DNA of 64,000 nt from a virus (Duplodnaviria > Caudoviricetes): positions 1-64,000 of the IMG/VR virus record IMGVR_UViG_2848581113_000005; one strand, written 5' to 3'. Under the pieces are notes generated by a model that was not told where the DNA came from, searched no databases, and saw nothing but the letters and a program-made list of their open reading frames with translations. How positions within the stretch are numbered: the first letter of the stretch is position 1; each line of letters begins with the position of its first letter. Made by a program: the position numbers and the translations under genes. Of the stretch, positions 1-20,840 are shown piece by piece.

Positions 1-972
1 CTAAGGGCACTTATCTGTCCTTTCCATCCTCTTTAGGGCAAGCAGTCGCTGTTTGAGTTTTTCCGCTTTACCGGGATGAAACCTGGCCAGCAAATGAACT
101 TGGCCCAGCGTCTGTGCATAAGGGCCGCTGTCGAACACGGTAATCTCTCCCCGCAGGAAGGCCTGTTCTAAGTGATTAACAGCCGAGCGTATCTGGCTTT
201 GCCGGGAAACAGAAAGGCCAGGCTTAGAATTCACCGAAAGCTTGGTAACATCCATCCGCTCACCGGACGTCCTGATCTCATGCTTGGTGCGTTTGGGTCG
301 ATAGCCGTGCCTGAAAAGCATGCCGTAAACGCTGGCAATTACTTCCGTTTTAGCCGAATTATCAAGAAATGTTTCTGACGAGACGGCAATATCATCGACG
401 TAGCGGGAGTAAACTAACCCGCGGGCCTGAAGGCTGGCCTGCAACGCCGGCTCAGCGTTCCAGAATGCCAGGTTGGCCAGAAATGAACTGGTTATTGCCC
501 CCTGAGGCAACTCCCCCTGACGAGTCGTCAGGCGGGTCAGGCAGTCGGCAACGTCCTGCCCGAAGCAAAAAAAATTCCGCCATATGCCGTAAACCACTGC
601 GGCCGACGTTGCCGGAAAGAAGCCCATGATATCTTCGTTTATAACGATGGTCGCGCCGGCGTGCAGGGATGCATTGACCTTGTAGTCACATCCTTTCAGG
701 CTGCCGGTTAGGTAAGACGGATAAGTAACGTAGTCCAGTATGTTGCGTCTGATGCTGCGGTGAATTTTTTTAAGCGGTTCGTAGGCATCCCACGTCTGGC
801 GCACACTGCCGTCAGCCTTAGGAAGATTGCTGGCGAGACGGTACATCCGGTCGGAGCGACAGGCTAGGTTACTAAGCTCTCTGGCAGGGATATTCAGTGC
901 TTTTGCCAGCGACACCAGACTGCTGATGCGTCGTCTGCGGTAGAAGGGGCCGTTAGGCGGGATGTGGTTCAT
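1..972 (-). CDS. Retron-type reverse transcriptase
   Basis: Motifs NASLH (retron NAxxH), LPQGAITS, YSRYVDD and VTKL (VTG-like region Y). Likely ATG at 972 overlaps the HTH gene end; the ORF track extends it to 999. Stop codon at 1-3. Confidence 0.93.
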   Translation of the reverse strand: MNHIPPNGPFYRRRRISSLVSLAKALNIPARELSNLACRSDRMYRLASNLPKADGSVRQTWDAYEPLKKIHRSIRRNILDYVTYPSYLTGSLKGCDYKVNASLHAGATIVINEDIMGFFPATSAAVVYGIWRNFFCFGQDVADCLTRLTTRQGELPQGAITSSFLANLAFWNAEPALQASLQARGLVYSRYVDDIAVSSETFLDNSAKTEVIASVYGMLFRHGYRPKRTKHEIRTSGERMDVTKLSVNSKPGLSVSRQSQIRSAVNHLEQAFLRGEITVFDSGPYAQTLGQVHLLARFHPGKAEKLKQRLLALKRMERTDKCP

Positions 973-1294
973 TGAGCAGCTCCAGCGCGGTGCGCGCAAG
1001 TTCGCCCTGCAGACCTTTATCCATACCGTTGAGGTCGCCGGCTTCGGCAGCGATGAAAAAAATAATGCTGACAGGCACTTTCAACGCGGTGGCTATTTTA
1101 GTAAGCGTGGATAGAGTAGGGTCCCGCTTGTTATTTTCCAGCATGGAAAGGTATGAGACTGAGCATTCGGCCTTGTGTGCAAGATCCGTCTGCGATATTC
1201 CCCTTCTGGTCCGACACAACTTGATAGCCTGTCCGATATTCATAAGTAACCCCTGAATCAATATTGGGCCTGCTGCGTCTTGGCTTTGCTGCAT
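953..1294 (-). CDS. XRE/Cro-CI family HTH protein of the retron
   Basis: IGQAIKLCRTRRGISQTDLA...SYLSMLENNKRDPTLSTLTKIATAL is a typical XRE HTH. Start at 1294 (TAATG overlap with the upstream stop) or at 1243. Confidence 0.88.
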   Translation of the reverse strand: MQQSQDAAGPILIQGLLMNIGQAIKLCRTRRGISQTDLAHKAECSVSYLSMLENNKRDPTLSTLTKIATALKVPVSIIFFIAAEAGDLNGMDKGLQGELARTALELLNEPHPA

Positions 1295-1533
1295 TACTTC
1301 ATCCAGTCAGTAATATTTGTGACGAGACGTAATACAATGTCGATAATGCGCAGAGCCCGGAAGACAATATCGTCAGACCGGTTCCCGCTTTTTACCGGGC
1401 TGTCCTGATGGCTGCGTAGCTGTTGCAGCACATCGTCCAGCTCAGCCAGAGCGCCAGCATCGAGTTGGCTGCAGTGTGCATCGCGCAGCTTTTCTAGCGT
1501 TGCGATGGTGTTCTTTAAAGTGTCATGTTTCAT
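1294..1533 (-). CDS. 79-aa small protein, putative retron effector/toxin
   Basis: AAAGGAG RBS then ATG at 1533 (MKHDTLKN...). Helical with a hydrophobic C-terminus. Occupies the small-protein position of type VI retrons. Confidence 0.72.
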   Translation of the reverse strand: MKHDTLKNTIATLEKLRDAHCSQLDAGALAELDDVLQQLRSHQDSPVKSGNRSDDIVFRALRIIDIVLRLVTNITDWMK

Positions 1534-1844
1534 TCTGTTCTCCTTTGAATCGGCAAAACCGCCGAAGCCCCGTAACAAGGCGATGGCCGAAAGGAGCCAA
1601 CCCGATGCGCAAGCCCAACACCAGTCTTCGCGACGATGAAGCCCGTTAATCCAGATAGTACAGCTGCTCCGTAGCCGCTTATTGCGATCGGCCACATGCA
1701 GACCATCATGACGAACGTACTTCTGACTGACCTGTGACGCTGGTCTGTCTTTTTCTCCGACACCGGATGAAGGAGCGGCCTGATAAACAGGCAGTTACGC
1801 TAAGCCTTCGCTATTACGATGAGAACAAGAATTTTAAAGAACAC
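1508..1844 (-). ncRNA. Retron msr/msd-like ncRNA overlapping the small-protein start
   Basis: 12-bp inverted repeat 1833-1844/1508-1519 and inner 7-bp pair 1821-1827/1536-1542. Internal hairpins include GCCTG/CAGGC, TCCG/CGGA, CAGACCA/TGGTCTG and GTGGCCG/CGGCTAC. Confidence 0.75.
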
Positions 1845-1894
1845 GGCTCAGGCGGTACGCCTGACCTTCAGTAAGTAAAGCATAATCTTGGACA

Positions 1895-1937
1895 GTAGGC
1901 AATAAAATTTCACTGTCAGTGAAATTTTATTGCCTAC
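1895..1937. repeat. Perfect 21-bp inverted repeat with 1-nt spacer
   Basis: GTAGGCAATAAAATTTCACTG-T-CAGTGAAATTTTATTGCCTAC. Confidence 0.95.
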
Positions 1938-2033
1938 CTCAGTCAGCGTTGCGCTTCTGACACAAAGCAGACTATCAGACTCAGTTTTGCTCAGATCAGC
2001 AACAGTCTCAGATCGAGTGATAGCTAATACCAA

Positions 2034-4673
2034 TTACCGTATACACCACTGAATATCCTTCAGAATGTCATCCAGCCTCTCAATGGCCTGTGCGATTTCC
2101 GCAATAGCCTGCTTATGACGCTCATCGGATCTGGCCTGCTCATTAAGTTGTTCCTGTAAGCGCCGCCCAGTCTCTGCGTCCAGAAAATGCGCCTGACTGG
2201 CTTCCACTATCCAGCTGTTATCATTAGACGCGGTGCCGCTGACCCATGATGTCCACTCTGAGGCGTTGCCCGATTTATCCACCAGCCGTGCCCGAAAATA
2301 GAGCTTCTCCCCAGCCGCCAGCCCCTGCAAAGTGTGGGTTCGTTGCGGATAGGAAATATCGGCGAACTGCAGCGTGTCATCATCCTCTCCGTTTTTGTTG
2401 TAGCAAATTTCCGTTTTCAGCAGGACATCCGTCGGGTTGGCAAAATCCCAGTCCAGCCGGATACCAAAAAGTAGCGACGTGGTTCGGAGGGACTGCGGTG
2501 CCGACGGAACCTCTTTTCGGCTTCCTAGCAGGGTATCCTGCGTGTTCATCCAGATACTGGATATTGCCGCTGCATTCGTCGCCCTGACCCGCGCCTGATA
2601 GCGTCCGTCATCGACGTTCGGCACCTCAAGACTCCGTGCGGTAGTCTGGGGAGCCGTTATCCAGTTGCCGTTGTCTTTGCGCCATTCAACTTCATAAGCC
2701 ACGGCACTGTCGGCGGCGTCCCATGTGATCCGCAATGTGGTGGAGATGATGCCCTGATTAAGCGAATAATAACTGTCGATAAGGATATTCTTCGGTGCAG
2801 GCTGAACGCTGGGCGGAATGATGGTAACAGAGCGTTCGTCAATACGGGTATCCTTGTCGATAAGAGCATACTTGTCGGGGTTGTGCTCAACCGCCGTGAT
2901 GTCAAATGATACGCCGTCCTCTCCCGCTTTGATACCAATAACCCGAAAGGGTTTCTCCGCTATATAGCTGGATTCGATTGCCCAGACTGAGCCCACTTCA
3001 GGTTCATCTGAATAGGCATAACCACGATCCCACACGGAAACCTCCTGTCCGTTGATCGCTGAAATGAGATCCCTTTCTGCCTTACCTGACGGCAGGTTGA
3101 TGACAAGCCAATCCCCCACCTTTGCCGACGGCACCCGATCCAAGGTAATAATGTATCGTCTCGGCATAGCCTGGATACGCCCACTCCTTCCTGACCCTGA
3201 CAACAGGTTATCCGATACACCGATAAGGTAACCCGGCAGGGGAATGTGTCCCTCCAGTCCGACGATGAAAGTGACAGTCCGGTCATGTTCGTTGGTGTGT
3301 AACACCCATTTACCACGCCGGATGGCTTCACTCTGGCGGGTACAACCGATGGCAGTGATATCGGCCTGCCGGATACCATAGCGGCGTATCAGGCGAGGTT
3401 CAAACACCGGTTCGATAGCATCCTGATAACCATTCTGCGGATCGGACCAGCTTACCATGGCTGTAGAGTAATGGGTTTTCTCGCTGGCACTGGAATAGGT
3501 GAATTTACCGTCACGCACATTGGCACAGGTAAAGAGATAATCCATGTCACGGGGCATGTCCGCCAGCACGTTCATGTTGTTATTAGACCAAAAAGTCATG
3601 CCCCGGAAGATCCCCGCAATGTCACGCAACACAGCCCAGGCGTCTTCCTGTGACTGGATATAAACATTGCAGGTGAAACGCGGCTCTCCATGGCCTTCGC
3701 CATCCAACACAGTCTGATCACAATATTGAGCGATGCTATACAGATCCCATTTTGCCAAAGCCAGATTTTCCGCTTTCACCCGGGTGCCGATGCTGAACCG
3801 ATCATTGATCATCAGGTCATACAGCACCCATGCCGGATTGTCGCTCCATGCCCATTTGAAGGTGCCGTCCCAGCTGCCATGATAAAAACGGCGACGGGGT
3901 TCCAGATAATAATTACTCGGCACTCGGATGATGCGCATCTTGGGTTCGCAAGTGATTTGCGGGATATTACGGAACTGTTTGGCATCAAACTGAACAAACA
4001 ACAGGGCCGTTTCTGGATAGCTTAATTTGGCATCGATCACTTCGGTGATGGCCTCCACCACCATGGCATCAGCGATTCGGTTACTGTTCTGTTTTGGCGT
4101 CAACCGACGAAGGCGTACCTGCCAGCCCGAATGGGCGTTGGGTAAATCCACCCGGTGGGAACGTTCGTATTTAGTGGTGGTTTTGCCATCAACGGCAGTT
4201 TTCAGGATTTCCTTAAAAGCGCCGCCATCGGTGGCGAGGTCAATAGCATATTCAATACGATAGCCCACCGTGTCCCCGTTCTCTTTTTGTCTCTGCAACT
4301 GGGCCCACGATAACCGTAGGCGAACCGCTGACAGTTGGGTATTGGTGACCGTCGTTACCCACGAACTGACCAGTTCGGCGCTGACGATGCGGGCATTTTC
4401 GACTGCCGGCATCCCGGGGATATACGCCTGATGGGGAGTACCGGGGCGGAACTCCCATTTGACTCCTTCAAAATTGGGTCGGCCGTGGATGTCACTCAAT
4501 GGCGTGTTATCCAAAAAAATACGCTGACCATCCAGCTCTCCCGCAAATTCCCCTTCACCGAGAGCAAGGATGATCTTGGTATAAGAGGTGGATTGCAGGG
4601 AGTCCGGTGCTTCCACCGGGGTGCGCGGATGCTGACGGCCGCCTTTGTTACCCTGAATTGACTGCTTTTCCAT
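2034..4673 (-). CDS. Tail tip/host-specificity protein J-like, C-terminally shortened
   Basis: Colinear with the J at 33075-36230 up to about GRRL, then ends after about 40 unrelated residues. Confidence 0.88.
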   Translation of the reverse strand: MEKQSIQGNKGGRQHPRTPVEAPDSLQSTSYTKIILALGEGEFAGELDGQRIFLDNTPLSDIHGRPNFEGVKWEFRPGTPHQAYIPGMPAVENARIVSAELVSSWVTTVTNTQLSAVRLRLSWAQLQRQKENGDTVGYRIEYAIDLATDGGAFKEILKTAVDGKTTTKYERSHRVDLPNAHSGWQVRLRRLTPKQNSNRIADAMVVEAITEVIDAKLSYPETALLFVQFDAKQFRNIPQITCEPKMRIIRVPSNYYLEPRRRFYHGSWDGTFKWAWSDNPAWVLYDLMINDRFSIGTRVKAENLALAKWDLYSIAQYCDQTVLDGEGHGEPRFTCNVYIQSQEDAWAVLRDIAGIFRGMTFWSNNNMNVLADMPRDMDYLFTCANVRDGKFTYSSASEKTHYSTAMVSWSDPQNGYQDAIEPVFEPRLIRRYGIRQADITAIGCTRQSEAIRRGKWVLHTNEHDRTVTFIVGLEGHIPLPGYLIGVSDNLLSGSGRSGRIQAMPRRYIITLDRVPSAKVGDWLVINLPSGKAERDLISAINGQEVSVWDRGYAYSDEPEVGSVWAIESSYIAEKPFRVIGIKAGEDGVSFDITAVEHNPDKYALIDKDTRIDERSVTIIPPSVQPAPKNILIDSYYSLNQGIISTTLRITWDAADSAVAYEVEWRKDNGNWITAPQTTARSLEVPNVDDGRYQARVRATNAAAISSIWMNTQDTLLGSRKEVPSAPQSLRTTSLLFGIRLDWDFANPTDVLLKTEICYNKNGEDDDTLQFADISYPQRTHTLQGLAAGEKLYFRARLVDKSGNASEWTSWVSGTASNDNSWIVEASQAHFLDAETGRRLQEQLNEQARSDERHKQAIAEIAQAIERLDDILKDIQWCIR

Positions 4674-7098: not shown

Positions 7099-10000
7099 CG
7101 GCCTCCTTTAATCGCAACACTGAGTTCACCCCCTTGATTTAAACTTTTATGTAGCAAAAATTTGAATCGCTGATCGACGAATTTCGCAATATCCTGCCCC
7201 GCTGACTCGGCTCCACGGGATGTTTTTGTGTCGTGAGTACCATCGGAATGGACCACAATATGGACGGTGTTATGAACCGTATTGAAGGTCTGGTTGCCCG
7301 TACTGCCAGTAGTCTGCACACCCAGCTTACCGTCAGTACCGCGTTTAAGTGGCAATATAGCTTCTGGTCCAGCTTCTCCCATCACCCCGCCCCCTTTGGC
7401 AAACTTAAACAAGGTTGGGCTGCTGACAACCTGCCCGCTGTACTGACTTAAATCCGCAGATTGATAAACACCGCCTTTCGCATTCATGATGGGACTCTTC
7501 CAGACATCCGGACCTATCGTTGTGCCAGAACCTACCGAAGACAGACCACCTCCCGCTGAGGACAATGCACTGGCTCCCATACTTCCCATCGCACCACCAA
7601 AGAAACCGGAGATTGCTTTGGTTATCAGTGCCTGCATTGCTATACGTACCAAGTCCTGAATGATGGATTGCGCCAGTGAGGCCGAGAGTTCCCGCATGGA
7701 TTCTGAAAATGATTTTGTGCCCGTCAACATGCCTGTTAAGGCGTTACCCGTGCGTTGTTCGACCACATCCAACAGCTCCATCTGTATTTTCTGGAAATCC
7801 CCCTGTGATACGTATAAATCCTTTGCAGCAGCAAATTGTGCCTCTTTGGAGCGATTAGCAGCCGCTGTCATTAACTGCTCATAACGTTCTTTGTTGAGAA
7901 GTCCGTTCCGGTAGTAGGTGTCATAAAGTGCTGTTTGTTCTGTAAGCTGATTTTGCAGTTGCACAACGGGATCGACCTCGCCCATCATATCCAGACGCGG
8001 GGCGGAAATTTGCTTCGCCTGTTCAGCTAATTTATCCTTTACCGAGGTTTGATATAACGTTCTGCTGGCAGATAAATATTCCTGCTCACTGAGCAACCGT
8101 TCGATGTACAGGGCTTTCAGCTCTTCACTGGCTTCTTTTTCCTGTCGAATCAGCGCCTTCGCCGGCGCATATTTTTCTGCCAGTGCCAGCCGCTGTTTCT
8201 GGTGATTTTCGGCATTAAAGGCTGTTAAACGTTGAATTTCCTGTTGAGAAACTAAACCGGATTGACCCACTTCATCCAGCTTTCGCTGGACTTCCTGTTC
8301 ACTCAGGATGATGCGCCCCAAACTTGTCGTGTGCACCGTTTCAAGATCAAGACGCAACTGACGATACTGGTTCAAAATTTGAGTGATTTTTCCTTTCTTA
8401 TCATCACCGTTCCCTGTCCACGGATTACCCGTACTGCCGCCACCTTGATTATTAGATAGGGGTTTGGGTTTTTCACCGGCTTCTAGCGCTTTCAATGCAG
8501 CCTGAGATTCTTCAAGCTGCTTCTTATGAAATTCCATTTTTTTGAGCGCTTTTTCGTATTCCGCCTCTGCGTGTATCACTTCTTCTTGCGCTTTCTTTTT
8601 GTTTGCCCACAGACCGCCAAATCCAACACCGGAAACAATATTTTTCTTACCCTGCAAATCAAGCCATATTTTGGCGGTTTCCTTTTTTTGCACATTCAGT
8701 GCATCTCGGTATTTCAGAATCCTAGAGGACAGTTCAATCTTTGAAAGCTGCATCAACGCATTTTTTGTCTCGAGCACAGCATCCTTTAAATTAGTTGCAC
8801 TTGCGCGAGCTTCTTGTGCCCGTTGATGGAAATAATAGAGAGCAGAACCTGCCAACATCGCGGCACCAAATGGCCCGCCAATCATGGCAAGTGCGCCACG
8901 GGCAAATCCCCCAGCGGCAGATAATGCCCGATAGGAATAAGAAAACCGACGATTTGCCGCTTCAAGTTGACTGGTTGCCTGTGTTTGCAATTTGAGGGCT
9001 TCGGTTTCTTGCCTGATCAGGGTTCTTTTTTCTTTCGAGTAATTGACGAAAAGACCGTGCAAACGATTTGTTCTTTCCAGATATTGAATATGCCTGCCCT
9101 GTGCTTCCGTTGATCGCAGCGTGGCATTGGCCTGTTCAATCGTTCGTTTTGCCGTTTCTGCCTGCTGTCTGGCAACATTACGAGCCGCTTTTTCGGTGGC
9201 TTTCCATGCCGTCATATTTTCACGCAAGCCCGCTGTCAGCTTCGTTGCCATTACAGGAATTAACGTATGCAATGCAATACTGGCAACCAGACTAAAATTT
9301 TCGGACAACGCATTAATCGCACTGGTGGCATTTTGCACCCCAGTACGCAATGGGCCGTCGGCGCTCTGTCCAATTTTAACCGCCATACCTTCAAACGCAC
9401 GGGTCAGCACATCCAGATCAGCCCCGAGGTTATTGGCACGCGCACTGGCCTGTTCATAAGCGACCTGCGTTCCGGTCAGGGCTTGAGTCAACTGCTCCAG
9501 TTTTTCCCGCCCGGTGACTAAGTTAGACGCCGCGCTGACATTCGCCCGCCCGAATAATTTCACCGCCTGTGCGGTTGAAAGTTTTTTGCCCGTCAGGGTT
9601 TCCAGTGCCGACGATAGCCCTACGACCGAGGGTTTCAGATTCTTGTCTGCCGAACGCTCCAGCGCCAGTATCACGTTACGCATGGCAGTGCCTGCCTCGC
9701 CGCCTTTAATGCCGCGTTCCGCCAGTATCTGGATAGCTGCGCCTAACTCTTCAAAGCTGACCCCTGCCAGTGCCGCTGCGGTACCGCCATTTTTAATGGC
9801 CTGCGCCGTTTCGTTAATTTCGGACGCACCGTATTTCGCCCCCGCCGCCAGTACGTTAATAAAGCGGTCAGCCTGTTCTGCACTGGCACCGAACTGATTA
9901 AGCGATAACGCCAAGGCACGGGTCGCATCTGGTAAATCAATACCGGACGCCTGCGCCAGTATTACCGCTTTTTCGGTTGCCAGCGTCAGTGCCTCGGTAC

Positions 10001-10421
10001 TTTTCAGCAGTTCTGGCTTTGCTGAGGCTATCAATTTAAATGCCTCGGCAATGCGGGTTACGCCGAATTCCGTGGTACGACCAATCCGTTGGGCATTTTC
10101 ATCCAGTTTCTTTAACTGCTCGCCCGTTGCACCAGTAATGGCGGATAAGTCGGACAACGCCTGTCCGTATTGGCGGGTATGGGAAATAATGGTGCTCAGT
10201 GAAAAGCCCGTACCTGCCAGCATCATTAACTGACCGGAGACGGATTTGATTTGCGAGGCCAGCGAGCTGTAGCTCTTTTTCACCTTGTTGGCATCTGCCA
10301 CCGATTTATCGCTAAAGCGTTGTGATCCCTGCCCGGCATAACGATAAGCATCCATGATCTGGGATTTAAACGAAGTGGCATTAACCAGCAAGCCGACCGT
10401 CAATGTCGATAAATTAGCCAT
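7095..10421 (-). CDS. Tape measure protein
   Basis: 1108 aa, Ala-rich and helical, with lambda-type C-terminal MGEAGPEAILPL. Confidence 0.92.
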   Translation of the reverse strand: MANLSTLTVGLLVNATSFKSQIMDAYRYAGQGSQRFSDKSVADANKVKKSYSSLASQIKSVSGQLMMLAGTGFSLSTIISHTRQYGQALSDLSAITGATGEQLKKLDENAQRIGRTTEFGVTRIAEAFKLIASAKPELLKSTEALTLATEKAVILAQASGIDLPDATRALALSLNQFGASAEQADRFINVLAAGAKYGASEINETAQAIKNGGTAAALAGVSFEELGAAIQILAERGIKGGEAGTAMRNVILALERSADKNLKPSVVGLSSALETLTGKKLSTAQAVKLFGRANVSAASNLVTGREKLEQLTQALTGTQVAYEQASARANNLGADLDVLTRAFEGMAVKIGQSADGPLRTGVQNATSAINALSENFSLVASIALHTLIPVMATKLTAGLRENMTAWKATEKAARNVARQQAETAKRTIEQANATLRSTEAQGRHIQYLERTNRLHGLFVNYSKEKRTLIRQETEALKLQTQATSQLEAANRRFSYSYRALSAAGGFARGALAMIGGPFGAAMLAGSALYYFHQRAQEARASATNLKDAVLETKNALMQLSKIELSSRILKYRDALNVQKKETAKIWLDLQGKKNIVSGVGFGGLWANKKKAQEEVIHAEAEYEKALKKMEFHKKQLEESQAALKALEAGEKPKPLSNNQGGGSTGNPWTGNGDDKKGKITQILNQYRQLRLDLETVHTTSLGRIILSEQEVQRKLDEVGQSGLVSQQEIQRLTAFNAENHQKQRLALAEKYAPAKALIRQEKEASEELKALYIERLLSEQEYLSASRTLYQTSVKDKLAEQAKQISAPRLDMMGEVDPVVQLQNQLTEQTALYDTYYRNGLLNKERYEQLMTAAANRSKEAQFAAAKDLYVSQGDFQKIQMELLDVVEQRTGNALTGMLTGTKSFSESMRELSASLAQSIIQDLVRIAMQALITKAISGFFGGAMGSMGASALSSAGGGLSSVGSGTTIGPDVWKSPIMNAKGGVYQSADLSQYSGQVVSSPTLFKFAKGGGVMGEAGPEAILPLKRGTDGKLGVQTTGSTGNQTFNTVHNTVHIVVHSDGTHDTKTSRGAESAGQDIAKFVDQRFKFLLHKSLNQGGELSVAIKGGR

Positions 10422-10424
10422 AAC

Positions 10425-10660
10425 TTAACCTAATAATTTCATGATAGCATCACACTGTGCCTGGACCGTATCACTGGGTGACGATACAGATACAGCAGGC
10501 GGACTGTCTGGCTGTTTGCGGTTTTTTAGTCGGTAATAGACCTGCCACTCGTTGAGCGTGGACGCAGGCAAAGACAGAATGCGATAGGGATCAATTTCGC
10601 CGAGCTGCTCAGCTAATGTGAAAGCAAAATGCAGCCACGGCGAGTGGGTTAGTTTTTTTC
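10425..10660 (-). CDS. Tail chaperone gpGT extension (-1 programmed frameshift)
   Basis: Slippery GAAAAAAAC before the gpG stop; the -1 frame is open (LTHSPWLHFAFTLAEQLGEIDPY...MKLLG*). Confidence 0.8.
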
Positions 10661-10996
10661 GGCGTCCTCCAGTGTGCCGATGGCGTGGCGCTTCACGGTC
10701 TGAATCGCTTCAATCAGGGTCGCGTTATCGTGGATGGCCATCAATTCTTCTGCGGTGGGCAGGTCATCAGTGGGAATGGATTGCCCCTTATCATCCACCA
10801 GACAATCCAACACCATCTGGATATTCAGGCGGGAGGCTTCGCGCCCGTCCCCGGCATCACTTAGCTTTTCCGCTTTTTCTTCCAGTTCCAGTAATTCCAG
10901 TGCCGTCATCCGGCGCAGGTTTATTTGCGTACCGAACAGTTCCACTGCTTTAATCTGCGGGCGCGGGGTGAGTAAGGCCGCTTTCAGCGCTTTCAT
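10649..10996 (-). CDS. Tail assembly chaperone gpG-like
   Basis: Lies between tail tube and tape measure; ends EKN* at the slippery site. Confidence 0.82.
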   Translation of the reverse strand: MKALKAALLTPRPQIKAVELFGTQINLRRMTALELLELEEKAEKLSDAGDGREASRLNIQMVLDCLVDDKGQSIPTDDLPTAEELMAIHDNATLIEAIQTVKRHAIGTLEDAEKN

Positions 10997-11454
10997 TGGG
11001 TGACTCCTGTTTTCTTGTCAGTAATACCCCAGACGAGGTTATTTTGTTTGCCTTTGACCGTGATTTGGATCACTTCACTCGCCGGGGCGTTAATGTCGTT
11101 CATTTCCCAACCTGAAAGCGCCAGTACCATCATGGCGGTACGTTTATTCGGCAGGGCAATGTAAAACTGCACGGTTTCACGCTTTTCCGCCGCGTTCAGG
11201 AAGGAGACAAAATCGGGGTTCTCCGGATCATCGATAAAGCCAAGGGATTTTTCCGGACCTTCAGGCATATCGGAAATAAACTGTTTGTTGGTATCCATCA
11301 GGGTGGTGCAGTCGACAAAACTGCCGGTCAGCCCCGTGGCTCCCAATGCCTTACAGTTAATTAATGGACGCATGTCTTCTACGGTGTCGCCGGGCTTGCC
11401 AAACTTCACCACTGTACCAGCAGGCAATACGGCGTATTCTGGCGATGTTGCCAT
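10993..11454 (-). CDS. Major tail tube protein
   Basis: Synteny; VDCTTL...FISDMPEGPEKS motif. Confidence 0.8.
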   Translation of the reverse strand: MATSPEYAVLPAGTVVKFGKPGDTVEDMRPLINCKALGATGLTGSFVDCTTLMDTNKQFISDMPEGPEKSLGFIDDPENPDFVSFLNAAEKRETVQFYIALPNKRTAMMVLALSGWEMNDINAPASEVIQITVKGKQNNLVWGITDKKTGVTQ

Positions 11455-11465
11455 TATGTGTTCTC

Positions 11466-11870
11466 CTATTGACTGTACCCTGATAAGGCATCACGGATTT
11501 CCTGTGCAAGCACTTTAATCACAGCGGTTTTGTTGTAGTCCAGTGCCGGACGGATAAAGGGATTTGGCACCTGCTTAATCGTGCCCATCTCCTGCGCCAG
11601 TGCTTTCATGCGATGGGGTTTTGTCGGACCCACGGTGATCATCACCCCGCCTTTATATTTTTTCGATTTTGCCGAGTTAATGTGGATGGCATCCCGCATA
11701 TGGGAACCCTCGCTTTTCCGGTTATAACCAGCATGCATTTCCATATCTTCTTTAACGATTTCCATGGCAACTTTTCCGGCTTTGCGCAGGATTTGGGTCT
11801 GGAGCTCACGGTCCAGCGCCTGCAATTTATGCCTCAACTCCACCCATCCCGTTGTTTTTGCGGTGATCAT
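11466..11870 (-). CDS. HK97 gp10-like neck/tail component
   Basis: EMGT...PNPFIRPALD motif; ATG at 11870. Confidence 0.82.
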   Translation of the reverse strand: MITAKTTGWVELRHKLQALDRELQTQILRKAGKVAMEIVKEDMEMHAGYNRKSEGSHMRDAIHINSAKSKKYKGGVMITVGPTKPHRMKALAQEMGTIKQVPNPFIRPALDYNKTAVIKVLAQEIRDALSGYSQ

Positions 11871-12253
11871 GTCAGATGCCCCGTGTAAATGATGATAAAG
11901 TCCCGTGTGATACGGTAGCGCTTGCGGTTTTCTGTCAATTCTTCTGCATTTTGGTACAGTGCACCGCGCGTCACCGCCTGTACCGGATAGTGACCGATAA
12001 AACCGTGTTGCACCGACTCCCATGTTGAGCAAATTTTACCTTCCAGCTTAAGGGCTTTTTTATAGTCATGTAGGATGAGACTGATTTGAAAGCGAGCCTC
12101 GATGAGTTGTGTGGCCGCCAGCCCAGAATTGAATTTCGCGTCACTGATACGCTGGTAGGTCACGCCCTCTAACACACTGGACGGCAGTATCAGCGGATAG
12201 ACAGGCAGCCCGGTTAATCGCGTTAAATCGGCTTGAAGTTCAGGTTCTATCAT
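11867..12253 (-). CDS. Tail completion/terminator protein
   Basis: Synteny; VTYQRISD; ATG at 12253. Confidence 0.7.
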   Translation of the reverse strand: MIEPELQADLTRLTGLPVYPLILPSSVLEGVTYQRISDAKFNSGLAATQLIEARFQISLILHDYKKALKLEGKICSTWESVQHGFIGHYPVQAVTRGALYQNAEELTENRKRYRITRDFIIIYTGHLT

Positions 12254-12572
12254 GACGAATATCCGTCTCCGTGGTGATAACGGCACGGTCAGTACGATTG
12301 CGGTCGACGGCGCGAATGGTAAACAGCCGTCCCTGATGTTCAACCAACCAATCAGGTTCAATGTCTTTTCTTGGCCTGACGGTAAATTGTTGCACCTCGA
12401 TCACCTGTTGCTGATCAGCCGTGCGGATTTTACGGTGGGATAGGGCTTCCGCCCGTGCCCAGGTTTCAGTGACATATGCCCACACAATGATTTCAGCACC
12501 CAGATCATCACGGTTTTTGACAGGACGGAACAGTTTAATGCGATAGCGAAGTGAGCCGGCTTTCATCGGCAT
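12240..12572 (-). CDS. Head closure (head-tail adaptor) protein
   Basis: MKAGSLRYRI N-terminus typical of the SPP1 gp16-like family; AGGAG RBS. Confidence 0.8.
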   Translation of the reverse strand: MPMKAGSLRYRIKLFRPVKNRDDLGAEIIVWAYVTETWARAEALSHRKIRTADQQQVIEVQQFTVRPRKDIEPDWLVEHQGRLFTIRAVDRNRTDRAVITTETDIRHDRT

Positions 12573-12576
12573 TCTC

Positions 12577-12879
12577 CTATAGAGGAATAAAACGGTAAGG
12601 TTCCAGCAACGCTTTAAATCCGGAGGGTAAGGCCTGTGCCTCCCGGTTTTCATACCAGTAACCGACCACCAGCATAATTGCCAGTGCCACATCATCGGTC
12701 GCTAACAGGCCGTCCGGATCATCCTTTGGCACCGCGTTCTCATACAGGCGGCGGTTCAGGTAGCTTTCTGCCTGTTTGATGGCAGCACGAGAATACGTGT
12801 CTAATAAATCATCTTCGGTGTGATTATCACTGTCGATACGGCACTGCTGCCGAAGCAGATCAAGCGTGGGAAAAGACAT
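12577..12879 (-). CDS. Head-tail connector (HK97 gp6-like)
   Basis: EDDLL...LVVGYWYENRE...LLEPYR. Confidence 0.88.
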   Translation of the reverse strand: MSFPTLDLLRQQCRIDSDNHTEDDLLDTYSRAAIKQAESYLNRRLYENAVPKDDPDGLLATDDVALAIMLVVGYWYENREAQALPSGFKALLEPYRFIPL

Positions 12880-12902
12880 GTCATCTCCTGCTAATACGGT
12901 GA

Positions 12903-14114
12903 CTACGCCTTATCTTCTGCCACTTTCAGCAGTTTCACGGCGTTGCTGTCCACCAGCAGGGAGCCGACCCGTTTGGTGGTGTAGAAGTGGATAAACGGCT
13001 TGTGGGTGTACGGATCACGCAGCATACGCACCCCCAGCCTGTCCAAAATGGTGTAGCAACGTTTGAAGTTACCGAACACCATCGGCACGGCACCTGCGTC
13101 CAGATCGGCAAATTGCTCATTCTCTGCGATACCGTAGCCCAGCAAGGCGGAGGGTTGCCCCAGTTGCAAACCCGGCTGCCACAGATAGTTGCCCTGACTG
13201 TCTTTCAGAGTGCGTACCTGAAACAGCATGTTGTTGTTCATCATGAATTTCGCCCCGTTGCGGTATGGCTTGCGCAGGGTGTAAATCAGTTTCAGGATTT
13301 CGTCTGCCGTGACCTCGGTTGGCTTTTTCAGCAATAGGTGCTGCAACGTACCCCATTTACGATCCTTGTCGTCCTGTGCTTCACTGCCGTAGGCCAGTAA
13401 GCCTTTTGGCTTGTTCTTGCCGTCGCCGTGGGTAAAGGCGCTTTCTTCCTGCTCGGCAAATTCCTGTATCAGCTCAGACGAGATAAAGGCTTCCACATCG
13501 AAAAAGGCATCATCCAGCATGGTCTGAGTGGCTGCCGGATTACCGTAGATTTCACCCCAGATGGGTTCGATGGGTGCCAGCTTTGGCGTTTTAGTTTCCG
13601 GGCGTTCGTCGGTTTCACCAACCCAGCCACTGTTAGTGCCACCCTGATTGATCAGTCGCTTAAAATTAGGATTGCCAACGGACACCACATGACATTCAGT
13701 GCGCATCACCACCTCGTCTTTCAGGGCACTGATGATATTGCGATCCAGCTCTTCCGGCACGGCATAGCCCCCTTCAGGATCGGTCGTGGTCTGCATCGCT
13801 TTTTGTTCCAATTCTGCCAGTCCGTCTTCGCGGCCTTTGCGGATAAATTGAGCAAATGCGGTTTTATGCTCACTGACGTCCTTGCTATTGCTACCGCCTG
13901 CCGGACGTTTCAGCCCGGCCAGCTCTTCTTCCAGCGCTGATTTCAGGGTATCTAGCTCGCTGAGTTTGCCGTTCAAGGTTTCCACTTGTCCGGCTAATTT
14001 GCCTTTTTCCGCCTCAATCGCGTCAATGCGCTGGTCATTCTTCTGCCGGAACTCGTCGAAACGCTGCTGAATTTCCTGCGCGACCTGTTGTATGTCTTTG
14101 ACTTCAATAGCCAT
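12903..14114 (-). CDS. HK97-family major capsid protein
   Basis: Coiled-coil delta domain, GGYAVPEE, LKDSQGNYLWQP. Confidence 0.93.
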   Translation of the reverse strand: MAIEVKDIQQVAQEIQQRFDEFRQKNDQRIDAIEAEKGKLAGQVETLNGKLSELDTLKSALEEELAGLKRPAGGSNSKDVSEHKTAFAQFIRKGREDGLAELEQKAMQTTTDPEGGYAVPEELDRNIISALKDEVVMRTECHVVSVGNPNFKRLINQGGTNSGWVGETDERPETKTPKLAPIEPIWGEIYGNPAATQTMLDDAFFDVEAFISSELIQEFAEQEESAFTHGDGKNKPKGLLAYGSEAQDDKDRKWGTLQHLLLKKPTEVTADEILKLIYTLRKPYRNGAKFMMNNNMLFQVRTLKDSQGNYLWQPGLQLGQPSALLGYGIAENEQFADLDAGAVPMVFGNFKRCYTILDRLGVRMLRDPYTHKPFIHFYTTKRVGSLLVDSNAVKLLKVAEDKA

Positions 14115-14126
14115 AAAAAACTCCGG

Positions 14127-14783
14127 TTAGTTAAAATGTAATGATTTCAGTGCATTCAGGGCAGACGCTGCTTCCGCCTCACGCAGCAACAGGGTGCCAT
14201 AGCCACCCGCCATAAAGGCTTTGGCCTGCGTTCGGGAGAGTCCAACATCGCACAGGACTCGTTCAATATGACTGGGATTGGGAATATCGCCCCGAGCAAA
14301 GGCCGATTTCACATTGCTCACCCGGGCATCATCGTTGGCGGGAAAGGTCACCAGACTTACTTCCCATAAATCGAGGTCTTTCAGTAAAAAAGCCGCTTTT
14401 GTCCGGTCATACTCCCCATCTTTCAGCACATAACCGATAGACAGGCCGGAGAGCGACCCTGCTTTCATATGGGCGTGTGCCCGTTTTGCCAGTGGGTCAT
14501 CGTCAATGAGCAGATGCCCTTTGAGATACAGCCCAGTTTCGTCTTCTTTCATTTCGGTATAGATACCGATGGGTTCATCCATTCGGTGTTGCCAGAGCAA
14601 AGCAGGCAGACTGCCTTTTTCTTTCCATTGTTTCAGGGTATTGGCAAAGGCACCGGGTAAAACGATATCGTCGGTACTGTCTTTCAGGCCGAATACCGAG
14701 CCATACCCTTCAAACTCGCCGGAATCACTGACAGATTTAATGTTCAAAGGCATATCAAGCCGTTGTTTGGTTATCATCGGCAT
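14127..14783 (-). CDS. HK97-family prohead protease
   Basis: FEGYGSVF, LWQH, GLSIGY, EVSLVTFPAN. Confidence 0.93.
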   Translation of the reverse strand: MPMITKQRLDMPLNIKSVSDSGEFEGYGSVFGLKDSTDDIVLPGAFANTLKQWKEKGSLPALLWQHRMDEPIGIYTEMKEDETGLYLKGHLLIDDDPLAKRAHAHMKAGSLSGLSIGYVLKDGEYDRTKAAFLLKDLDLWEVSLVTFPANDDARVSNVKSAFARGDIPNPSHIERVLCDVGLSRTQAKAFMAGGYGTLLLREAEAASALNALKSLHFN

Positions 14784-15987
14784 GGGATTCTTCCTCTTTT
14801 TTCGGGGCTTGTTTAGGTTTCGTGGTCATGTTCATCGGTGTGAGATAAATATCACCGCCCTCGCGGGGGTTGAGTTCTTCCAGCTCCCGGCATTCGTTCG
14901 GCGCGTAAATGCCCCAGTTAATGCCGGTGGCGTAGGATTCAAAACGGGATTTCATGTCACCACGCAGCAACGCGCCCGTGTTGAATTTGGCGTAGAACTG
15001 CCCCTGTTTGCTGTTTTTGACCAACCCCGCATTAATGCGCTGTTCAATCCGGGTGAGATAAGGTACCAAAGAGTAATTAATAAACCCGATCCCCAGATTT
15101 TCAATATTGTTAAAGGTGGCGCGGTCAGTGTTCTGCACCATATGCAGCGGCACCCGGAAGATGCGGCAGATTTCCTCAAGCTGAAACTTGCGGGTTTCCA
15201 GAAACTGCGCATCTTCGGCAGACAGGCTGATTTGATGCCATTTCAGTCCCATCTCCAGGATCATCGGCTTATGCGCGTTGACCAGTCCCTGATGACGGGC
15301 TTCAAAATCCGCCTTCAGCCGTTTATACGCCTCGTCTTTCAATGCCTGATCTGTTTGCAGTACGCCACTGGTGACTGCCCCGTTACCAAACAGCCGTGAT
15401 CCATGTTCTTCGGTGGCCAGCCCCAGCCCGATCGCTTGCCGGGCGTAGGTGATGGGGCTTAATCCAGTCAGTCCATCCAGCGTGAAGATGCGGACATGCC
15501 AGATCTCGTCTTGCGTCAATGTTTCATTATTCCCGTTCGGGAACGTCACCTGATATTCTGGCTGCCAGTCACGATTCAGTTTGGGAACGACAGCACCTGA
15601 ATCGAGCGGCAGTAATTCCACCACTTCCCCCAGTGCTTTGACTTTGTAAGCGTAGAAATTCCCCCGCAGGCACAGGCAGGCAATCAGCAACTCCCAGAAC
15701 TCCTGCGGCGTCATGTAATTATTGGGTTTGACCGACAACAGCTTATGTAACCGCTCGTTAACGGCGCGTCGGTTGCCGCGTTCTAATGGCTCATACAGCG
15801 AACAAGGCAGCATGCCAACGGATTCCGCCAGTACCCGTACGCAACTAAACACAGCGGTGAGCTGCATGGCTAACTGCGGGCTGACCCGCCGCCCGCTGTA
15901 GGTGTCATAAGACAAGCCAATCAGTTCACTTAAATTACGGGAGATCAGGGGTTCGGCGGATTTACGAAATAATCCGGGAAAAAACAT
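14755..15987 (-). CDS. HK97-family portal protein
   Basis: AVFSCVRVLAESV, GLSPI, EEICRIFRVP. Confidence 0.93.
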   Translation of the reverse strand: MFFPGLFRKSAEPLISRNLSELIGLSYDTYSGRRVSPQLAMQLTAVFSCVRVLAESVGMLPCSLYEPLERGNRRAVNERLHKLLSVKPNNYMTPQEFWELLIACLCLRGNFYAYKVKALGEVVELLPLDSGAVVPKLNRDWQPEYQVTFPNGNNETLTQDEIWHVRIFTLDGLTGLSPITYARQAIGLGLATEEHGSRLFGNGAVTSGVLQTDQALKDEAYKRLKADFEARHQGLVNAHKPMILEMGLKWHQISLSAEDAQFLETRKFQLEEICRIFRVPLHMVQNTDRATFNNIENLGIGFINYSLVPYLTRIEQRINAGLVKNSKQGQFYAKFNTGALLRGDMKSRFESYATGINWGIYAPNECRELEELNPREGGDIYLTPMNMTTKPKQAPKKEEESHADDNQTTA

Positions 15988-16163
15988 CAAACCTCCTTAT
16001 CGGGTTTCTGGCTCAACATGCGTGAAACCAAATACGACCAGCCAAGGCACAGCACACCCGACGCCATAAATCCGGCAGCCGGCAACAGCAACCATGCGCC
16101 GTAAGACAGCAAAACGCCGCCCGCCAGCCCGATTAACAGGGCAGCAATCATTAATTCTTTCAT
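15987..16163 (-). CDS. 58-aa membrane protein between terL and portal
   Basis: Hand-translated MKELMIAALLIGLAGGVLLSYGAWLL...; two hydrophobic segments; absent from the ORF track. Confidence 0.65.
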   Translation of the reverse strand: MKELMIAALLIGLAGGVLLSYGAWLLLPAAGFMASGVLCLGWSYLVSRMLSQKPDKEV

Positions 16164-16172
16164 GAAAAAACC

Positions 16173-17903: not shown

Positions 17904-18394
17904 GATGAAATCATCCTTATAAACGGATTGTCCGTTTTGGCCTGACCTGCCGCCCCAATCAGGCGCTGGCGGCTGCTCGGATCTAAGCCCAACATGGCAC
18001 CGGTGGTATCCATTTCAGATTGTTGCTCTTTTTTGGCGGTCAGCTCCGGGTTTTTAATCGGCCCACCGGTTGCGCCTGTTACTGTATTGCCTTGTCGAGC
18101 GATATTTATCACAGCATTGCGCCAGAATTGATAAGCTACACACCAGCGTTCAAGCACCACGAGATCCGTGACACAGAGTAACCCTTGGGCGCATAACTCT
18201 TTGCTGGTCAGCTCCCACATCACCACGGCCAGCGACATTTCATTGTCGGCAAACCAATTTGGCGGTGATACGCTCGTCAATGATGTAAAGCTAGGTTCCT
18301 CCCGATTCAGTTTGCGCTTGCCCGGATTGCCCGCCAATGCTTTGCGTGCCGTCGGTTTTGGGCGACGACCTGATTTCCCCGCCGTTCCCGCCAT
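17900..18394 (-). CDS. Terminase small subunit (P27 family)
   Basis: GRRPKPT...[17 protein letters not shown]. Confidence 0.9.
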
Positions 18395-18419
18395 ACGCAG
18401 CACCTCCCGGGCTTAAAAA

Positions 18420-18545
18420 CAGTGAAAGATGAGTGAAAAGTACCCGATTTAAATTTCATTTTTCGCGGGTATAAAAAAAGACCCAAGGTGGCGGTCCCTT
18501 GGGTCGAGAGTGGCAGGAATTTGACCCGCCCCTCCCCCTTGTAAA
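18420..18545. other. Putative cos packaging region
   Basis: Non-coding gap between HNH and terS, with dyad ACCCAAGG-N8-CCTTGGGT (18481-18504) and a G-rich tract; this is the usual cos position. Confidence 0.55.
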
Positions 18546-18593
18546 CTATGGCATTCGAAATGATTACGCTGGAAATTAATATTCACTCAGCCT

Positions 18594-18944
18594 TCAGCGT
18601 GATCGCTCTGTGGCAGTCTTCTGTCGATGGCAGGCTTCACACAGTAGTTGTAGATTGCTTAACACATCGGTGCCGCCATGCGCTTTGAGTTGGATATGGT
18701 CAACCGTCGTGCCTGTGACTGCTCGTCCCTGTCGTAAGCAGTGCTGGCACAAATGATTATCCCGTTGTTTTACTGCAATTTTTAACTTATCCCACTGACT
18801 GCCATAACCACGAGCATGTCGGCTTTTGCCCTGCTGGTGACGTTGCCAGCCTGTGTGAAGATGGTCAGTACAGTAGCCGCTGCGGTCGATGGTAGTCTTG
18901 GGGCAGCCTTGCTTGCGACAGGCTCGGGGAATACGGGGTAGCAT
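18594..18944 (-). CDS. HNH endonuclease (terminase-associated)
   Basis: CQHC...VDHI...NLQLLCEACH. Confidence 0.9.
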   Translation of the reverse strand: MLPRIPRACRKQGCPKTTIDRSGYCTDHLHTGWQRHQQGKSRHARGYGSQWDKLKIAVKQRDNHLCQHCLRQGRAVTGTTVDHIQLKAHGGTDVLSNLQLLCEACHRQKTATERSR

Positions 18945-20742: not shown

Positions 20743-20840
20743 AAGATAATCCTCTCTATAAATATTTAGCCTGTCTATTAAGATTAGCAATTTTTGCTAG
20801 GTATCACACAGAGTTATCCGCTCTTCTTAATCTCTATACC

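Follow-up and report, generated by a model that had tools for sequence, protein, structure and literature searches.

A conserved two-tier helix closes the non-coding RNA of a Xenorhabdus type VI retron over the start of its small protein gene

Introduction

In the canonical retron, the non-coding RNA (ncRNA) carries terminal complementary segments, a1 and a2, that enclose the msr and msd regions (Mestre et al., 2020, PMC7736814). Type VI retrons, which serve in phage defence, have a Cro/C1-type HTH gene by the reverse transcriptase (RT) gene and an auxiliary small protein (SP) of 75-79 residues (Mestre et al., 2020; Garcia-Rodriguez et al., 2026, bioRxiv 10.64898/2026.04.27.721009). Full-text literature searches on type VI retron RNA returned only two preprints, on Retron-Sen3 and on Vpa2, and for this one retron type their texts give opposite models of control, namely restraint by an antitoxin (Sen3) and translation unlocked by msDNA (Vpa2). 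According to the text of the Sen3 preprint, tagged SP is detectable without phage, the HTH protein neutralises SP without the ncRNA or the RT, and RT-dependent single-stranded DNA (ssDNA) is made constitutively, at a level that does not change on infection (Garcia-Rodriguez et al., 2026). The Vpa2 text describes a translational lock that is relieved by reverse-transcribed DNA, with no msDNA detectable in the absence of a trigger (Zhang et al., 2025, bioRxiv 10.1101/2025.10.22.683967).

The retron locus of the window (the whole 64-kb stretch of DNA that was analysed) is 100% identical to Xenorhabdus szentirmaii DSM 16338. The retron of this species (Mestre-582) is assigned to the cl2075 lineage in the Sen3 preprint text (Garcia-Rodriguez et al., 2026), and the exact locus is already catalogued. 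It stands in the lineage of Sen3, yet a conserved helix covers the SD and the first codons of its putative toxin gene, and a conserved fold is predicted to compete with that helix.

Results

Gene content of the locus

On sequence grounds the locus is a type VI retron with the gene order SP-HTH-RT, all on the minus strand. The RT (323 residues, 1-972) is of the type VI clade, with RT_VI (E 3.5e-71) as the best match among 59 PADLOC RT models and Pfam RVT_1 above cutoff; it contains YVDD, with the DD at 193-194 as in Sen3, and NAXXH in the form NASLH, while the VTG triplet reads VTK. [quoted passage not shown] SP and HTH stand together in 63/63 loci with a copy of each (49 distinct pairs). In a viral contig collection, 0 matches were obtained with a 22-nt probe derived from the retron RNA, which gives no sign there of the cassette travelling on phages.

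A two-tier helix over the start of the SP gene

On the minus strand, GTGTTCTTTAAA (1844-1833) is complementary to TTTAAAGAACAC (1519-1508) over 12/12 Watson-Crick pairs, and the latter falls within codons 5-9 of SP (+14 to +25 of the ORF), exactly as an earlier note on this DNA had claimed. Both arms of this outer tier emerge from a repeat search and are 313 bp apart; the 5' arm (GUGUUCUUUAAA, 1833-1844) is a1-like and is conserved and covarying in the alignment described below, and the 3' arm (1508-1519) is a2-like, with near-fixed synonymous codons. An inner tier is formed over the SD by TGTTCTC (1827-1821) and GAGAACA (1542-1536), a pairing that the same note had pointed out and that proves to be one pair longer, with eight pairs when the U-G pair 1828/1535 is counted. 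The 5' arm of the inner tier, UUGUUCUC (1821-1828), recognised by pairing and conservation, is an anti-SD, and its 3' arm, GAGAACAG (1542-1535), is part of the SD region AAAGGAGAACAG (1535-1545). With the outer tier on codons 5-9 and the inner anti-SD on the SD, the initiation region of SP therefore lies inside the helix that closes the ncRNA. The AUG stands between the two tiers. Its earlier placement in an internal loop agrees with the minimal reading, an asymmetric loop of 4 x 15 nt; in the MFE fold of this locus, AUUCU also pairs with AGAAU and covers the A and the U of the start codon.

Both tiers are part of the MFE structure predicted for 1860-1500 (-124.8 kcal/mol, z -2.14; 3/100 shuffles fold as well), and msr-like short hairpins lie inside the closing helix of the predicted fold, together with a long variable hairpin. 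The calculated cost of opening the RBS (-15 to +13 around the AUG) is 9.6 kcal/mol in the ncRNA-only RNA, 3.9 kcal/mol in the full RNA and 3.0 kcal/mol without the 5' part. Within the 64-kb window the outer 12-mer is confined to these two places, and 0/100 dinucleotide shuffles had any match, which speaks against a chance repeat; the lack of a U-run speaks against an intrinsic terminator.

Conservation and covariation of the helix

From 71 segments (60 distinct cores), 44 loci were retained after 8 had been dropped for short flanks and 8 for failing a regular expression for the upstream stem-loop; since 30/44 loci were retrieved by the 22-nt probe, which derives from an invariant block of the RNA, the set is biased towards close RNA relatives. 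Both tiers are kept with compensatory changes in these 44 loci, and the 8 loci that failed the stem-loop pattern show the same arms, except for L031, in which the wrong ATG was picked. The pairing of the closing stem is real, conserved and covarying in homologues, non-conservation having been named beforehand as refuting.

For the outer tier, 88.8% of 599 cells are paired in the MAFFT alignment A2 (44 loci, not structure-fitted), whereas shifting the partner by 1-3 columns leaves 35.5-55.8% paired. Five of its 14 pairs change on both sides, and such double changes fill 18 cells, as against 4.1 +/- 1.6 in shuffles, of which 0/500 reach 18; kinship among the sequences inflates this test, and likewise the permutation test below. 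There are also G-U replacements, in 20 rows at pair 37-497 and, as U-G, in 14 rows at pair 36-498, which fit the pairing of an RNA and not a palindrome in DNA. Because the outer tier has a nearly invariant core, much of its support consists of conservation and G-U changes and not of Watson-Crick swaps.

These columns bear directly on the view that the inverted repeat acts on DNA, perhaps as a pair of operators bound by the HTH protein, or has arisen by chance. An XRE-type HTH protein is indeed encoded in the operon, and both arms have a highly conserved core; however, the 313 bp between the arms, the inclusion of both arms in the sequence of RNA-library contigs, and the replacements in 20/44 rows and, at the next pair, in 14, which keep the RNA pairing and break the DNA symmetry, all argue for RNA, and the shuffled sequences do not give the 12-mer even once in 100 attempts. 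A DNA-level or fortuitous origin is thus very improbable.

In alignment A2 the lineages disagree by two columns on where the inner 5' arm falls, and the inner tier was therefore assessed by a structure-fitted table and an energy permutation, not by A2 counts. In the table, the G, A and G of the SD are paired in 25/25 distinct sequence types, and each of the spacer positions +4 to +7 shows 3-5 pair types. Cognate arms are more stable than non-cognate arms in both the inner (-12.0 versus -9.9 kcal/mol) and the outer tier (-14.8 versus -12.2 kcal/mol), and the cognate mean was equalled by 0/5000 permutations. In four loci (L022, L026, L027 and L041) the residues encoded by codons 5-9 differ and the 5' arm differs to match. 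Furthermore, synonymous choice is near-fixed in SP codons 7-12 (52-100% top codon; Leu only as TTA/TTG in 28/29 rows), and top-codon use reaches 91-100% in codons 22-29, compared with 44-93%, mostly 44-78%, in codons 56-79.

A competing fold of the full transcript

For the full RNA, the nearest-neighbour model predicts a second conserved fold that is mutually exclusive with the closing stem. The full-length MFE structure is without the stem, the alternative being approximately 5 kcal/mol more stable, and forcing the closing stem on the full RNA gives an ensemble value of -232.8 versus -237.6. In the calculations on full-length RNA, the SD pairs with the 5' arm at P <= 0.01 in 43/44 loci; in the short construct it prefers the 5' arm (P >= 0.5) in 25/44 loci and the GCUCCUU block in 10. 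The SD has a mean pairing probability of 0.89 for the short construct and 0.71 for the full RNA, whereas the AUG is variable across loci (0.06 to 1.00). The alternative fold, in which AAAGG of the SD region pairs with CCUUU, would hide the RBS only weakly, at 3.9 kcal/mol to open.

Central to this fold is an invariant block on the minus strand (1589-1624), comprising IR1 (approximately 1624-1607), a segment that pairs with SP nucleotides 62-77 (1608-1595) and a second anti-SD, GCUCCUUU (1597-1590). The CTCCTTT that had previously been placed at about 1595-1589 is present in it, one base away at 1596-1590. The block is invariant in 14 protein-found loci; in 56 metagenome loci, its invariance over the 22 nt covered by the probe follows from the way in which they were retrieved. 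Owing to this invariance, the predicted pairing of the SD with the second anti-SD can show no covariation. The predicted partner of the block in SP codons 21-26, CAGCCAACUCGAUGCU (1456-1471), is a 16-mer that is the same in 34/39 distinct loci, the other five differing by 1-2 bases. IR1 is predicted to pair with IR2 (1259-1274), 3' of the SP stop, and the duplex of approximately 1624-1607 with 1274-1259 has an energy of -23.9 kcal/mol, versus -13.8 kcal/mol for shuffled partners. IR2 lies 13-22 nt after the stop in 38/39 distinct loci (+22 in 32) and at +48 in L062. As both arms are invariant, they show no covariation, and the text of the Sen3 preprint likewise gives none for IR1-IR2 (Garcia-Rodriguez et al., 2026).

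Transcript boundaries and upstream elements

Directly upstream of the 5' arm lies a conserved stem-loop (1845-1866, minus strand; core UCAGGCG-UAC-CGCCUGA) that is present in both the short and the full folds. On A2, 99.7% of its cells are paired and 2/7 pairs have compensatory changes, and the variants in the 8 loci outside the regular-expression anchor are still paired. It corresponds to the '18-nt stem-loop' described as required for defence in the Sen3 preprint text (Garcia-Rodriguez et al., 2026). Further upstream is a candidate promoter (1874-1902, minus strand) with -35 TTGCCT (1902-1897), a 17-nt spacer and an extended -10 TGcTTTACT (1882-1874), from which a transcript start near 1867 is predicted. 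Its columns T19, T22, A25 and T27 in alignment A1 are invariant and G20 is nearly so. A promoter and terminator scan of the minus strand over 900-2200 listed no promoter or terminator; the scan requires A as the second base of the -10 hexamer, a rule that the candidate breaks, and it is therefore conservation that recommends it.

Among RNA-library contigs, one spans 294-1846 and hence both arms, and another 1258-1840. Contig ends fall at 1840, 1846, 1850 and 1857, and a record from X1 reaches 1886, where it closes with adapter letters; neither these ends nor the gap in listed cover at 1857-1890 is usable as a transcript start. A start downstream of 1833 had been named beforehand as refuting the sequestration, and the contigs extend past the 5' arm, to 1846-1857. 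Non-templated A-runs follow 1258 (in one contig) and 1592 on the minus strand, and an RNA 3' end is placed at about 1258, just past IR2. Word depths in X1 are 7,424-24,452 over 1369-1857, 464 over 1-1337 and 40 over 1890-3000, which is a hint only, as contig depth cannot rank the parts of a gene. These depths are in line with the RNA-seq enrichment published for Sen3 and Vpa2, as given in the preprint texts.

An Rfam search of 1-2600 in E-value mode gave no retron or riboregulator family, the other matches being far below gathering scores; two sub-threshold matches to miRNA models fall on a 43-bp palindrome (1895-1937), and there are four other weak matches in 1-2600.

An inner helix and the priming of reverse transcription

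Within the closing stem, a further helix, P2, is predicted between 1811-1799 and 1619-1607, with GCGAAGGCUUAGCG (1798-1811, minus strand) as its 5' strand. It corresponds to RNAalifold pairs 116-128 / 341-353 on A1, where 139/140 cells are paired, with one-sided changes only, and may be an alternative a1/a2-like priming site. Canonical retrons have a conserved branching G by a1 and a 2'-5' branched msDNA, as in the Ec86 context. Here G is invariant at 1809 and 1800 and nearly invariant at 1798, and a branching G may be among these.

P2 weighs on the proposal that the closing stem is only an a1/a2 helix for priming msDNA, its overlap with the SP start reflecting a compact operon and leaving translation unaffected. 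Terminal a1/a2 segments around msr and msd are the standard retron layout (PMC7736814), the present helix likewise surrounds short msr-like hairpins together with a long variable one, and Sen3, according to its preprint text, makes RT-dependent ssDNA. However, P2 lies in the canonical position, preceding both the msr and the variable hairpins and with an invariant G adjoining, and as a second candidate priming helix it means that the closing stem need not prime. In addition, the inner tier follows the sequence of the SD and spacer in every lineage, which is hard to see as coincidence, and an SD within a composite helix of 20 bp should affect initiation. A role confined to priming is consequently distinctly unlikely.

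Discussion

A proposed damping helix in a hybrid RNA

The reading that we favour, with slightly better than even confidence, is that the closing stem is the conserved two-tier basal helix of a hybrid RNA of approximately 610 nt, comprising a structured ncRNA and the SP mRNA, in a type VI retron of the cl2075 lineage, and that it damps SP translation. The helix would form the base of the ncRNA fold recognised by the RT and would hold the SP output per RNA low, the damping being suggested by the fold calculations. The HTH antitoxin would neutralise the leftover SP, following the pattern of Retron-Sen3, a relation that at this locus is suggested by analogy. As SP of Sen3 is detectable without phage, any such damping is incomplete. 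In the alternative fold, the partners of the block 1624-1589 would be IR2, SP codons 21-26 and, in a weak pairing, the SD, leaving a1, the AUG and a2 free.

The earlier note had gone further and taken the ncRNA for a translational lock on SP. The structural half of this proposal holds, as a conserved and covarying stem pairs the SD, but the full-length model prefers a fold without that stem. In its strong form, the proposal makes the stem the main control of the toxin, with SP made only once msDNA synthesis or RNase H opens the stem on infection, as in Vpa2. According to the text of Zhang et al. (2025), the RBS and AUG of Vpa2 lie in stem-loops of the hybrid RNA, cells suffer toxicity when the non-coding part is deleted, translation of SP needs active RT and is induced by Vpa2 msDNA in trans, and a conserved 7-nt direct repeat, shared between the msd and the riboregulator, is proposed to let msDNA displace the riboregulator. 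At the present locus, the closing-stem fold lifts the opening cost of the RBS to 9.6 kcal/mol, and GCUCCUU occurs twice (1776-1770 and 1597-1591, minus strand), both copies being complementary to an SD of the AAGGAGC type. GCTCCTT is likewise found twice on the retron strand in most related loci; in others, such as L002, L012, L013, L014 and L041, that strand has a single copy or none. However, the sequence of the Vpa2 repeat is not given in the preprint text, and GCUCCUU is a candidate counterpart of it. Furthermore, Vpa2 belongs, in the preprint texts, to a distant 'Large' lineage, whereas Sen3, of cl2075 like this locus, is described as making ssDNA and SP constitutively, with ssDNA unchanged on infection and SP neutralised by HTH alone. 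Cleavage of the template by RNase H would, moreover, not on its own open the 12+8-bp duplex, which would stay paired in trans. That the stem is the main control is therefore unlikely, and the associated suggestion, that reverse transcription could release the lock in place of a protein complex holding the effector, finds no support in the protein-level control by HTH reported for Sen3.

The damping reading can be extended, tentatively and with a doubtful prospect of being correct, to a two-state switch with the outer tier as hinge. The closed state would serve the RT without ribosome loading, and the open state, built from the IR1-IR2, block-to-codons 21-26 and block-to-SD pairings, would translate SP at a low rate, such that translation and reverse transcription would be mutually exclusive on each RNA molecule. 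The balance of states could be set by binding of the RT or HTH, by a phage cue, or by msDNA in which AAGGAGC resembles an SD. If this is true, a differing balance would explain the 'locked' Vpa2 and the 'constitutively armed' Sen3, and, should both folds interconvert, the two published control models could be reconciled in a single RNA architecture.

As it stands, the finding is an independent re-derivation of what the two preprints describe, since a stem over the toxin start and the idea of a translation block are already present in their texts (Garcia-Rodriguez et al., 2026; Zhang et al., 2025). A possible addition is the reach of the outer tier into SP codons 5-9, which the Sen3 preprint text does not mention and which its figures or supplements may draw.

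Comparison with known systems

In the hok/sok type I toxin mRNA, a long-range fold-back closes the SD and rearrangement of the RNA permits translation. The likeness to this system is one of mode of action only, as the present element serves an RT and has neither an antisense RNA nor a sign of a 3'-processing trigger. The canonical retron ncRNA (e.g. Retron-Eco1/Ec86), as described in the literature text consulted, resembles the present one in its terminal arms, short msr hairpins, long variable hairpin and location upstream of the RT; in contrast, the 3' arm here lies in a protein-coding gene, the SD is in the helix, the ncRNA extends to approximately 337 nt, and P2, as an inner helix, is a rival for the a1/a2 role.

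The hybrid RNA (hyRNA) of Vpa2, as presented in the preprint text (Zhang et al., 2025), likewise combines the template for the RT with the coding sequence of SP in a single transcript; in Vpa2 the RBS is sequestered, and the transcript is abundant and is bound by HTH and RT. Vpa2 differs in its distant RT/SP lineage and 55-aa SP model, in the location of the RBS and AUG, which lie within local stem-loops belonging to a 'second arm', and in a1/a2-like repeats that join the 5' part to the 3' end past the SP gene, whereas the helix described here ends inside codons 5-9.

The closest system is Sen3, for which control is known by experiment, the Xenorhabdus locus being known from its sequence. The two agree, as far as the Sen3 text describes, in the SP-HTH-RT order, the 79-aa SP, the DD at 193-194, the IR1-IR2 arms around the SP gene, an alternative fold with the RBS paired elsewhere and an RNA that reaches to just before the HTH RBS. 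The features of cl2075 ncRNAs, comprising the upstream stem-loop, the inner anti-SD:SD tier (here 1828-1821 / 1542-1535) and the IR1-IR2 pairing, are all found at this locus.

The retron cassette and its surroundings

The minus strand of window positions 1-2033 carries a compact retron cassette that immediately follows a phage tail gene (2034-4673) encoding an 879-aa protein with GpJ FNIII-A and Phage-tail_3 domains. An untranslated stretch of ~330 nt opens the cassette and is followed, on the same strand, by the ORF of the small protein SP (1533-1294, 79 codons; PADLOC SP_VI, E 8.9e-41), the gene for a 96-aa Cro/C1-type protein, HTH (1243-953; HTH_VI, E 5.1e-31), and that for a 323-aa reverse transcriptase, RT (972-1; RT_VI, E 3.5e-71). 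SP matched no Pfam family. The RT (window 4-972) retains YVDD (DD at 193-194) and an intact NAXXH motif (NASLH); the retron-typical VTG triplet reads VTK at this locus. With SP as the query, a locus of 100% identity was recovered from Xenorhabdus szentirmaii DSM 16338, as well as 13 further loci from Enterobacterales and Betaproteobacteria, with SP identity down to 49%.

The retron occupies a moron-like position closing a prophage tail operon; the gene it adjoins encodes a GpJ-like tail tip protein that, at 879 aa, is short. A perfect 43-bp palindrome (1895-1937; 21-nt arms, 1-nt spacer) sits between the retron and the stop of the tail gene (2034). It is the sole region with a strong Rfam 'hit', albeit to sub-threshold miRNA models, and a candidate -35 (1902-1897) falls inside its retron-proximal arm. 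In TAATG (1296-1292) an ATG overlaps the stop codon of SP and begins a potential N-terminal extension of HTH, 17 codons long and in the same frame; the resulting ORF (953..1294) would be 113 aa, and the extension crosses the inverted repeat IR2 (1274-1259).

A covarying helix over the SP start

The earlier note had described a closing stem in the retron non-coding RNA (ncRNA) that pairs across the start region of SP, an observation that is correct and well supported. The 12-nt arms of the outer tier (1844-1833 and 1519-1508) are indeed perfectly complementary, the 3' arm being SP codons 5-9, and the 12-mer has no other occurrence in the 64 kb and none in 100 shuffles. The inner tier (1828-1821 / 1542-1535) comprises 8 pairs including one U-G and covers the GAG of the SD as well as the spacer; both tiers are present in the minimum free energy (MFE) fold of 1860-1500. 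Only the coordinate of the second anti-SD, CTCCTTT in the DNA, is a base off (1596-1590, not about 1595-1589).

Conservation of the pairing, the lack of which the note would have taken as a refutation, is evident among homologues. Both tiers were recovered by RNAalifold from the 14 protein-found loci, and metagenome contigs searched with a 22-nt stretch of the invariant ncRNA block (1624-1589) added 56 loci; the same probe matched nothing in the collection of viral contigs, despite the position of the retron beside a phage tail gene. Filtering took 71 segments to 60 distinct cores, from which 8 that were too short and 8 failing a regex anchor in the upstream stem-loop were removed, leaving 44 for MAFFT alignment. 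On this alignment 88.8% of 599 outer-tier cells are paired, versus 35.5-55.8% with slid partners; both sides change in 5 of 14 pairs, and there are 18 double-change cells compared with 4.1 +/- 1.6 in shuffles (reached by 0/500). Much of the variation is from A-U to G-U or from U-A to U-G, changes that preserve pairing in the RNA while breaking the symmetry of the DNA; that the stem arose at the DNA level or by chance is highly improbable. In the divergent loci L015, L022, L026, L027 and L041 the arm sequences differ yet still match each other, and the 8 loci failing the regex anchor have matching arms together with covarying versions of the upstream stem-loop. Since MAFFT mis-registered the inner tier, its counts come from a structure-fitted table. 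There, all 25 distinct types pair the G, A and G of the SD, and each of the spacer positions +4 to +7 has 3-5 kinds of pair. Cognate arms also pair better than non-cognate ones in either tier (cognate mean reached by 0/5000 permutations); the shuffle and permutation tests are both inflated by the shared ancestry of the loci but consistent in direction. Synonymous codons are nearly fixed at SP codons 7-12 and 22-29 and vary more across the C-terminal half.

The transcript

A candidate extended -10 (TGnTnnAnT, 1882-1874), which every one of the 14 protein-found loci retains, is preceded 17 nt upstream by a -35-like TTGCCT. It places the predicted transcript start at about 1867, at the base of a stem-loop (1866-1845) that is conserved and covaries. 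RNA-library contigs from three studies include the region (294-1846, 1258-1840, 1592-1850 and one reaching 1857); the start site is not derivable from such contigs, but they hold sequence upstream of the 5' arm, so the start downstream of 1833 that the note had regarded as damaging is not borne out.

Non-templated A-runs (minus strand) in two of these contigs mark 3' termini of RNA, one immediately ahead of the HTH RBS (after 1258) and one inside the second GCUCCUU (after 1592). The latter, seen in a single contig from run X13, hints at a shorter RNA of about 1850-1592, which processing or RNase H might have produced. In one RNA library, word depths are 7,424-24,452 over the ncRNA and SP (1369-1857) versus 464 for the HTH-RT contig (1-1337), a measure that cannot rank parts of a gene; these depths match the RNA-seq enrichment reported for the type VI retrons Sen3 and Vpa2 (Garcia-Rodriguez et al., 2026; Zhang et al., 2025).

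A second, competing fold

For the whole RNA (1868-1252) the MFE structure lacks the closing stem (z -4.06; 0/20 shuffles as stable). Instead, the invariant block (1624-1589) pairs with IR2 after the SP stop (1274-1259) and with SP nt 62-77 (1471-1456), and its CCUUU pairs with AAAGG of the SD. The in-ORF partner is an identical 16-mer in 34 of 39 distinct loci, while IR2 lies at +22 from the SP stop in 32, at +13 to +21 in six others and, in L062, at +48. When the closing stem is imposed, the penalty is about 5 kcal/mol (ensemble -232.8 versus -237.6), which is within model error for a 600-nt RNA. The energy needed to open the RBS is 9.6 kcal/mol in an ncRNA-only construct, compared with 3.9 for the full RNA and 3.0 without the 5' part. 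In the 44 loci, short and long constructs alike have a mostly paired SD (mean 0.89 and 0.71, respectively); the 5' arm is its partner in 25 of the 44 short constructs and almost never in long ones. On these modelled energies and SD partners, the RNA has two conserved states that exclude each other, and the closing stem is the one that hides the RBS well.

The stretches 1589-1624, 1456-1471 and 1259-1274 are almost invariant in nucleotides across Gamma- and Betaproteobacteria, more so than the proteins (SPs are only about 50% identical), and they pair mutually in the predicted full-length fold.

Function of the helix and comparison with other type VI retrons

Three things are shown for the locus: a two-tier helix that covaries and spans the SD and first codons, a conserved fold that competes with it, and the type VI gene set. 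On balance, the helix probably forms the base of the RT-recognised fold and would lower SP translation per RNA, with any SP still made held by HTH, by analogy with Sen3. It is doubtful that the closing stem is purely a priming helix, because a predicted inner helix, P2 (1811-1799 / 1619-1607; 139/140 cells paired), holds the canonical a1/a2 position beside the invariant G1800; either of the two may be the one used for priming.

A full-text literature search on type VI retron RNA found two preprints. In Retron-Vpa2, the RT template and SP share one abundant 'hybrid RNA' with the RBS and AUG within stem-loops; removal of the non-coding part is toxic, SP translation requires active RT, and msDNA in trans induces it (Zhang et al., 2025, bioRxiv 10.1101/2025.10.22.683967). 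The earlier note had likewise proposed a translational lock on a putative toxin, which reverse transcription or RNase H action could release. The lock is supported in part, by the helix over the SD and first codons, and its essentials are already in print; release by RT is demonstrated in the distant Vpa2 lineage, and the two direct copies of GCUCCUU at the present locus (1776-1770 and 1597-1591) would be compatible with the release device proposed for Vpa2 (Zhang et al., 2025). We nonetheless consider such release unlikely at this locus, as its closest relative, Sen3, behaves otherwise (Garcia-Rodriguez et al., 2026) and RNase H alone would not melt the 20-bp composite duplex.

The second preprint covers Retron-Sen3 and 53 retrons of the cl2075 lineage (Garcia-Rodriguez et al., 2026, bioRxiv 10.64898/2026.04.27.721009). 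The present locus is already catalogued there: the X. szentirmaii retron is named Mestre-582 and its SP is modelled. The cl2075 RNA is described with a stem-loop upstream of the 5' repeat, the inverted repeats IR1-IR2 and an alternative fold that gives the RBS different pairing partners; in Sen3, ssDNA and SP are produced constitutively, SP is neutralised by HTH without ncRNA or RT, and the trigger is RecBCD inhibition (Garcia-Rodriguez et al., 2026). Pairing with SP codons 5-9 is not mentioned in the text of that preprint that the search covered, and the extension of the closing helix into the SP ORF is possibly a new detail. Possibly new too is that the two folds are near-isoenergetic in silico, which suggests a switch; a two-fold switch of this kind could reconcile the two published models.
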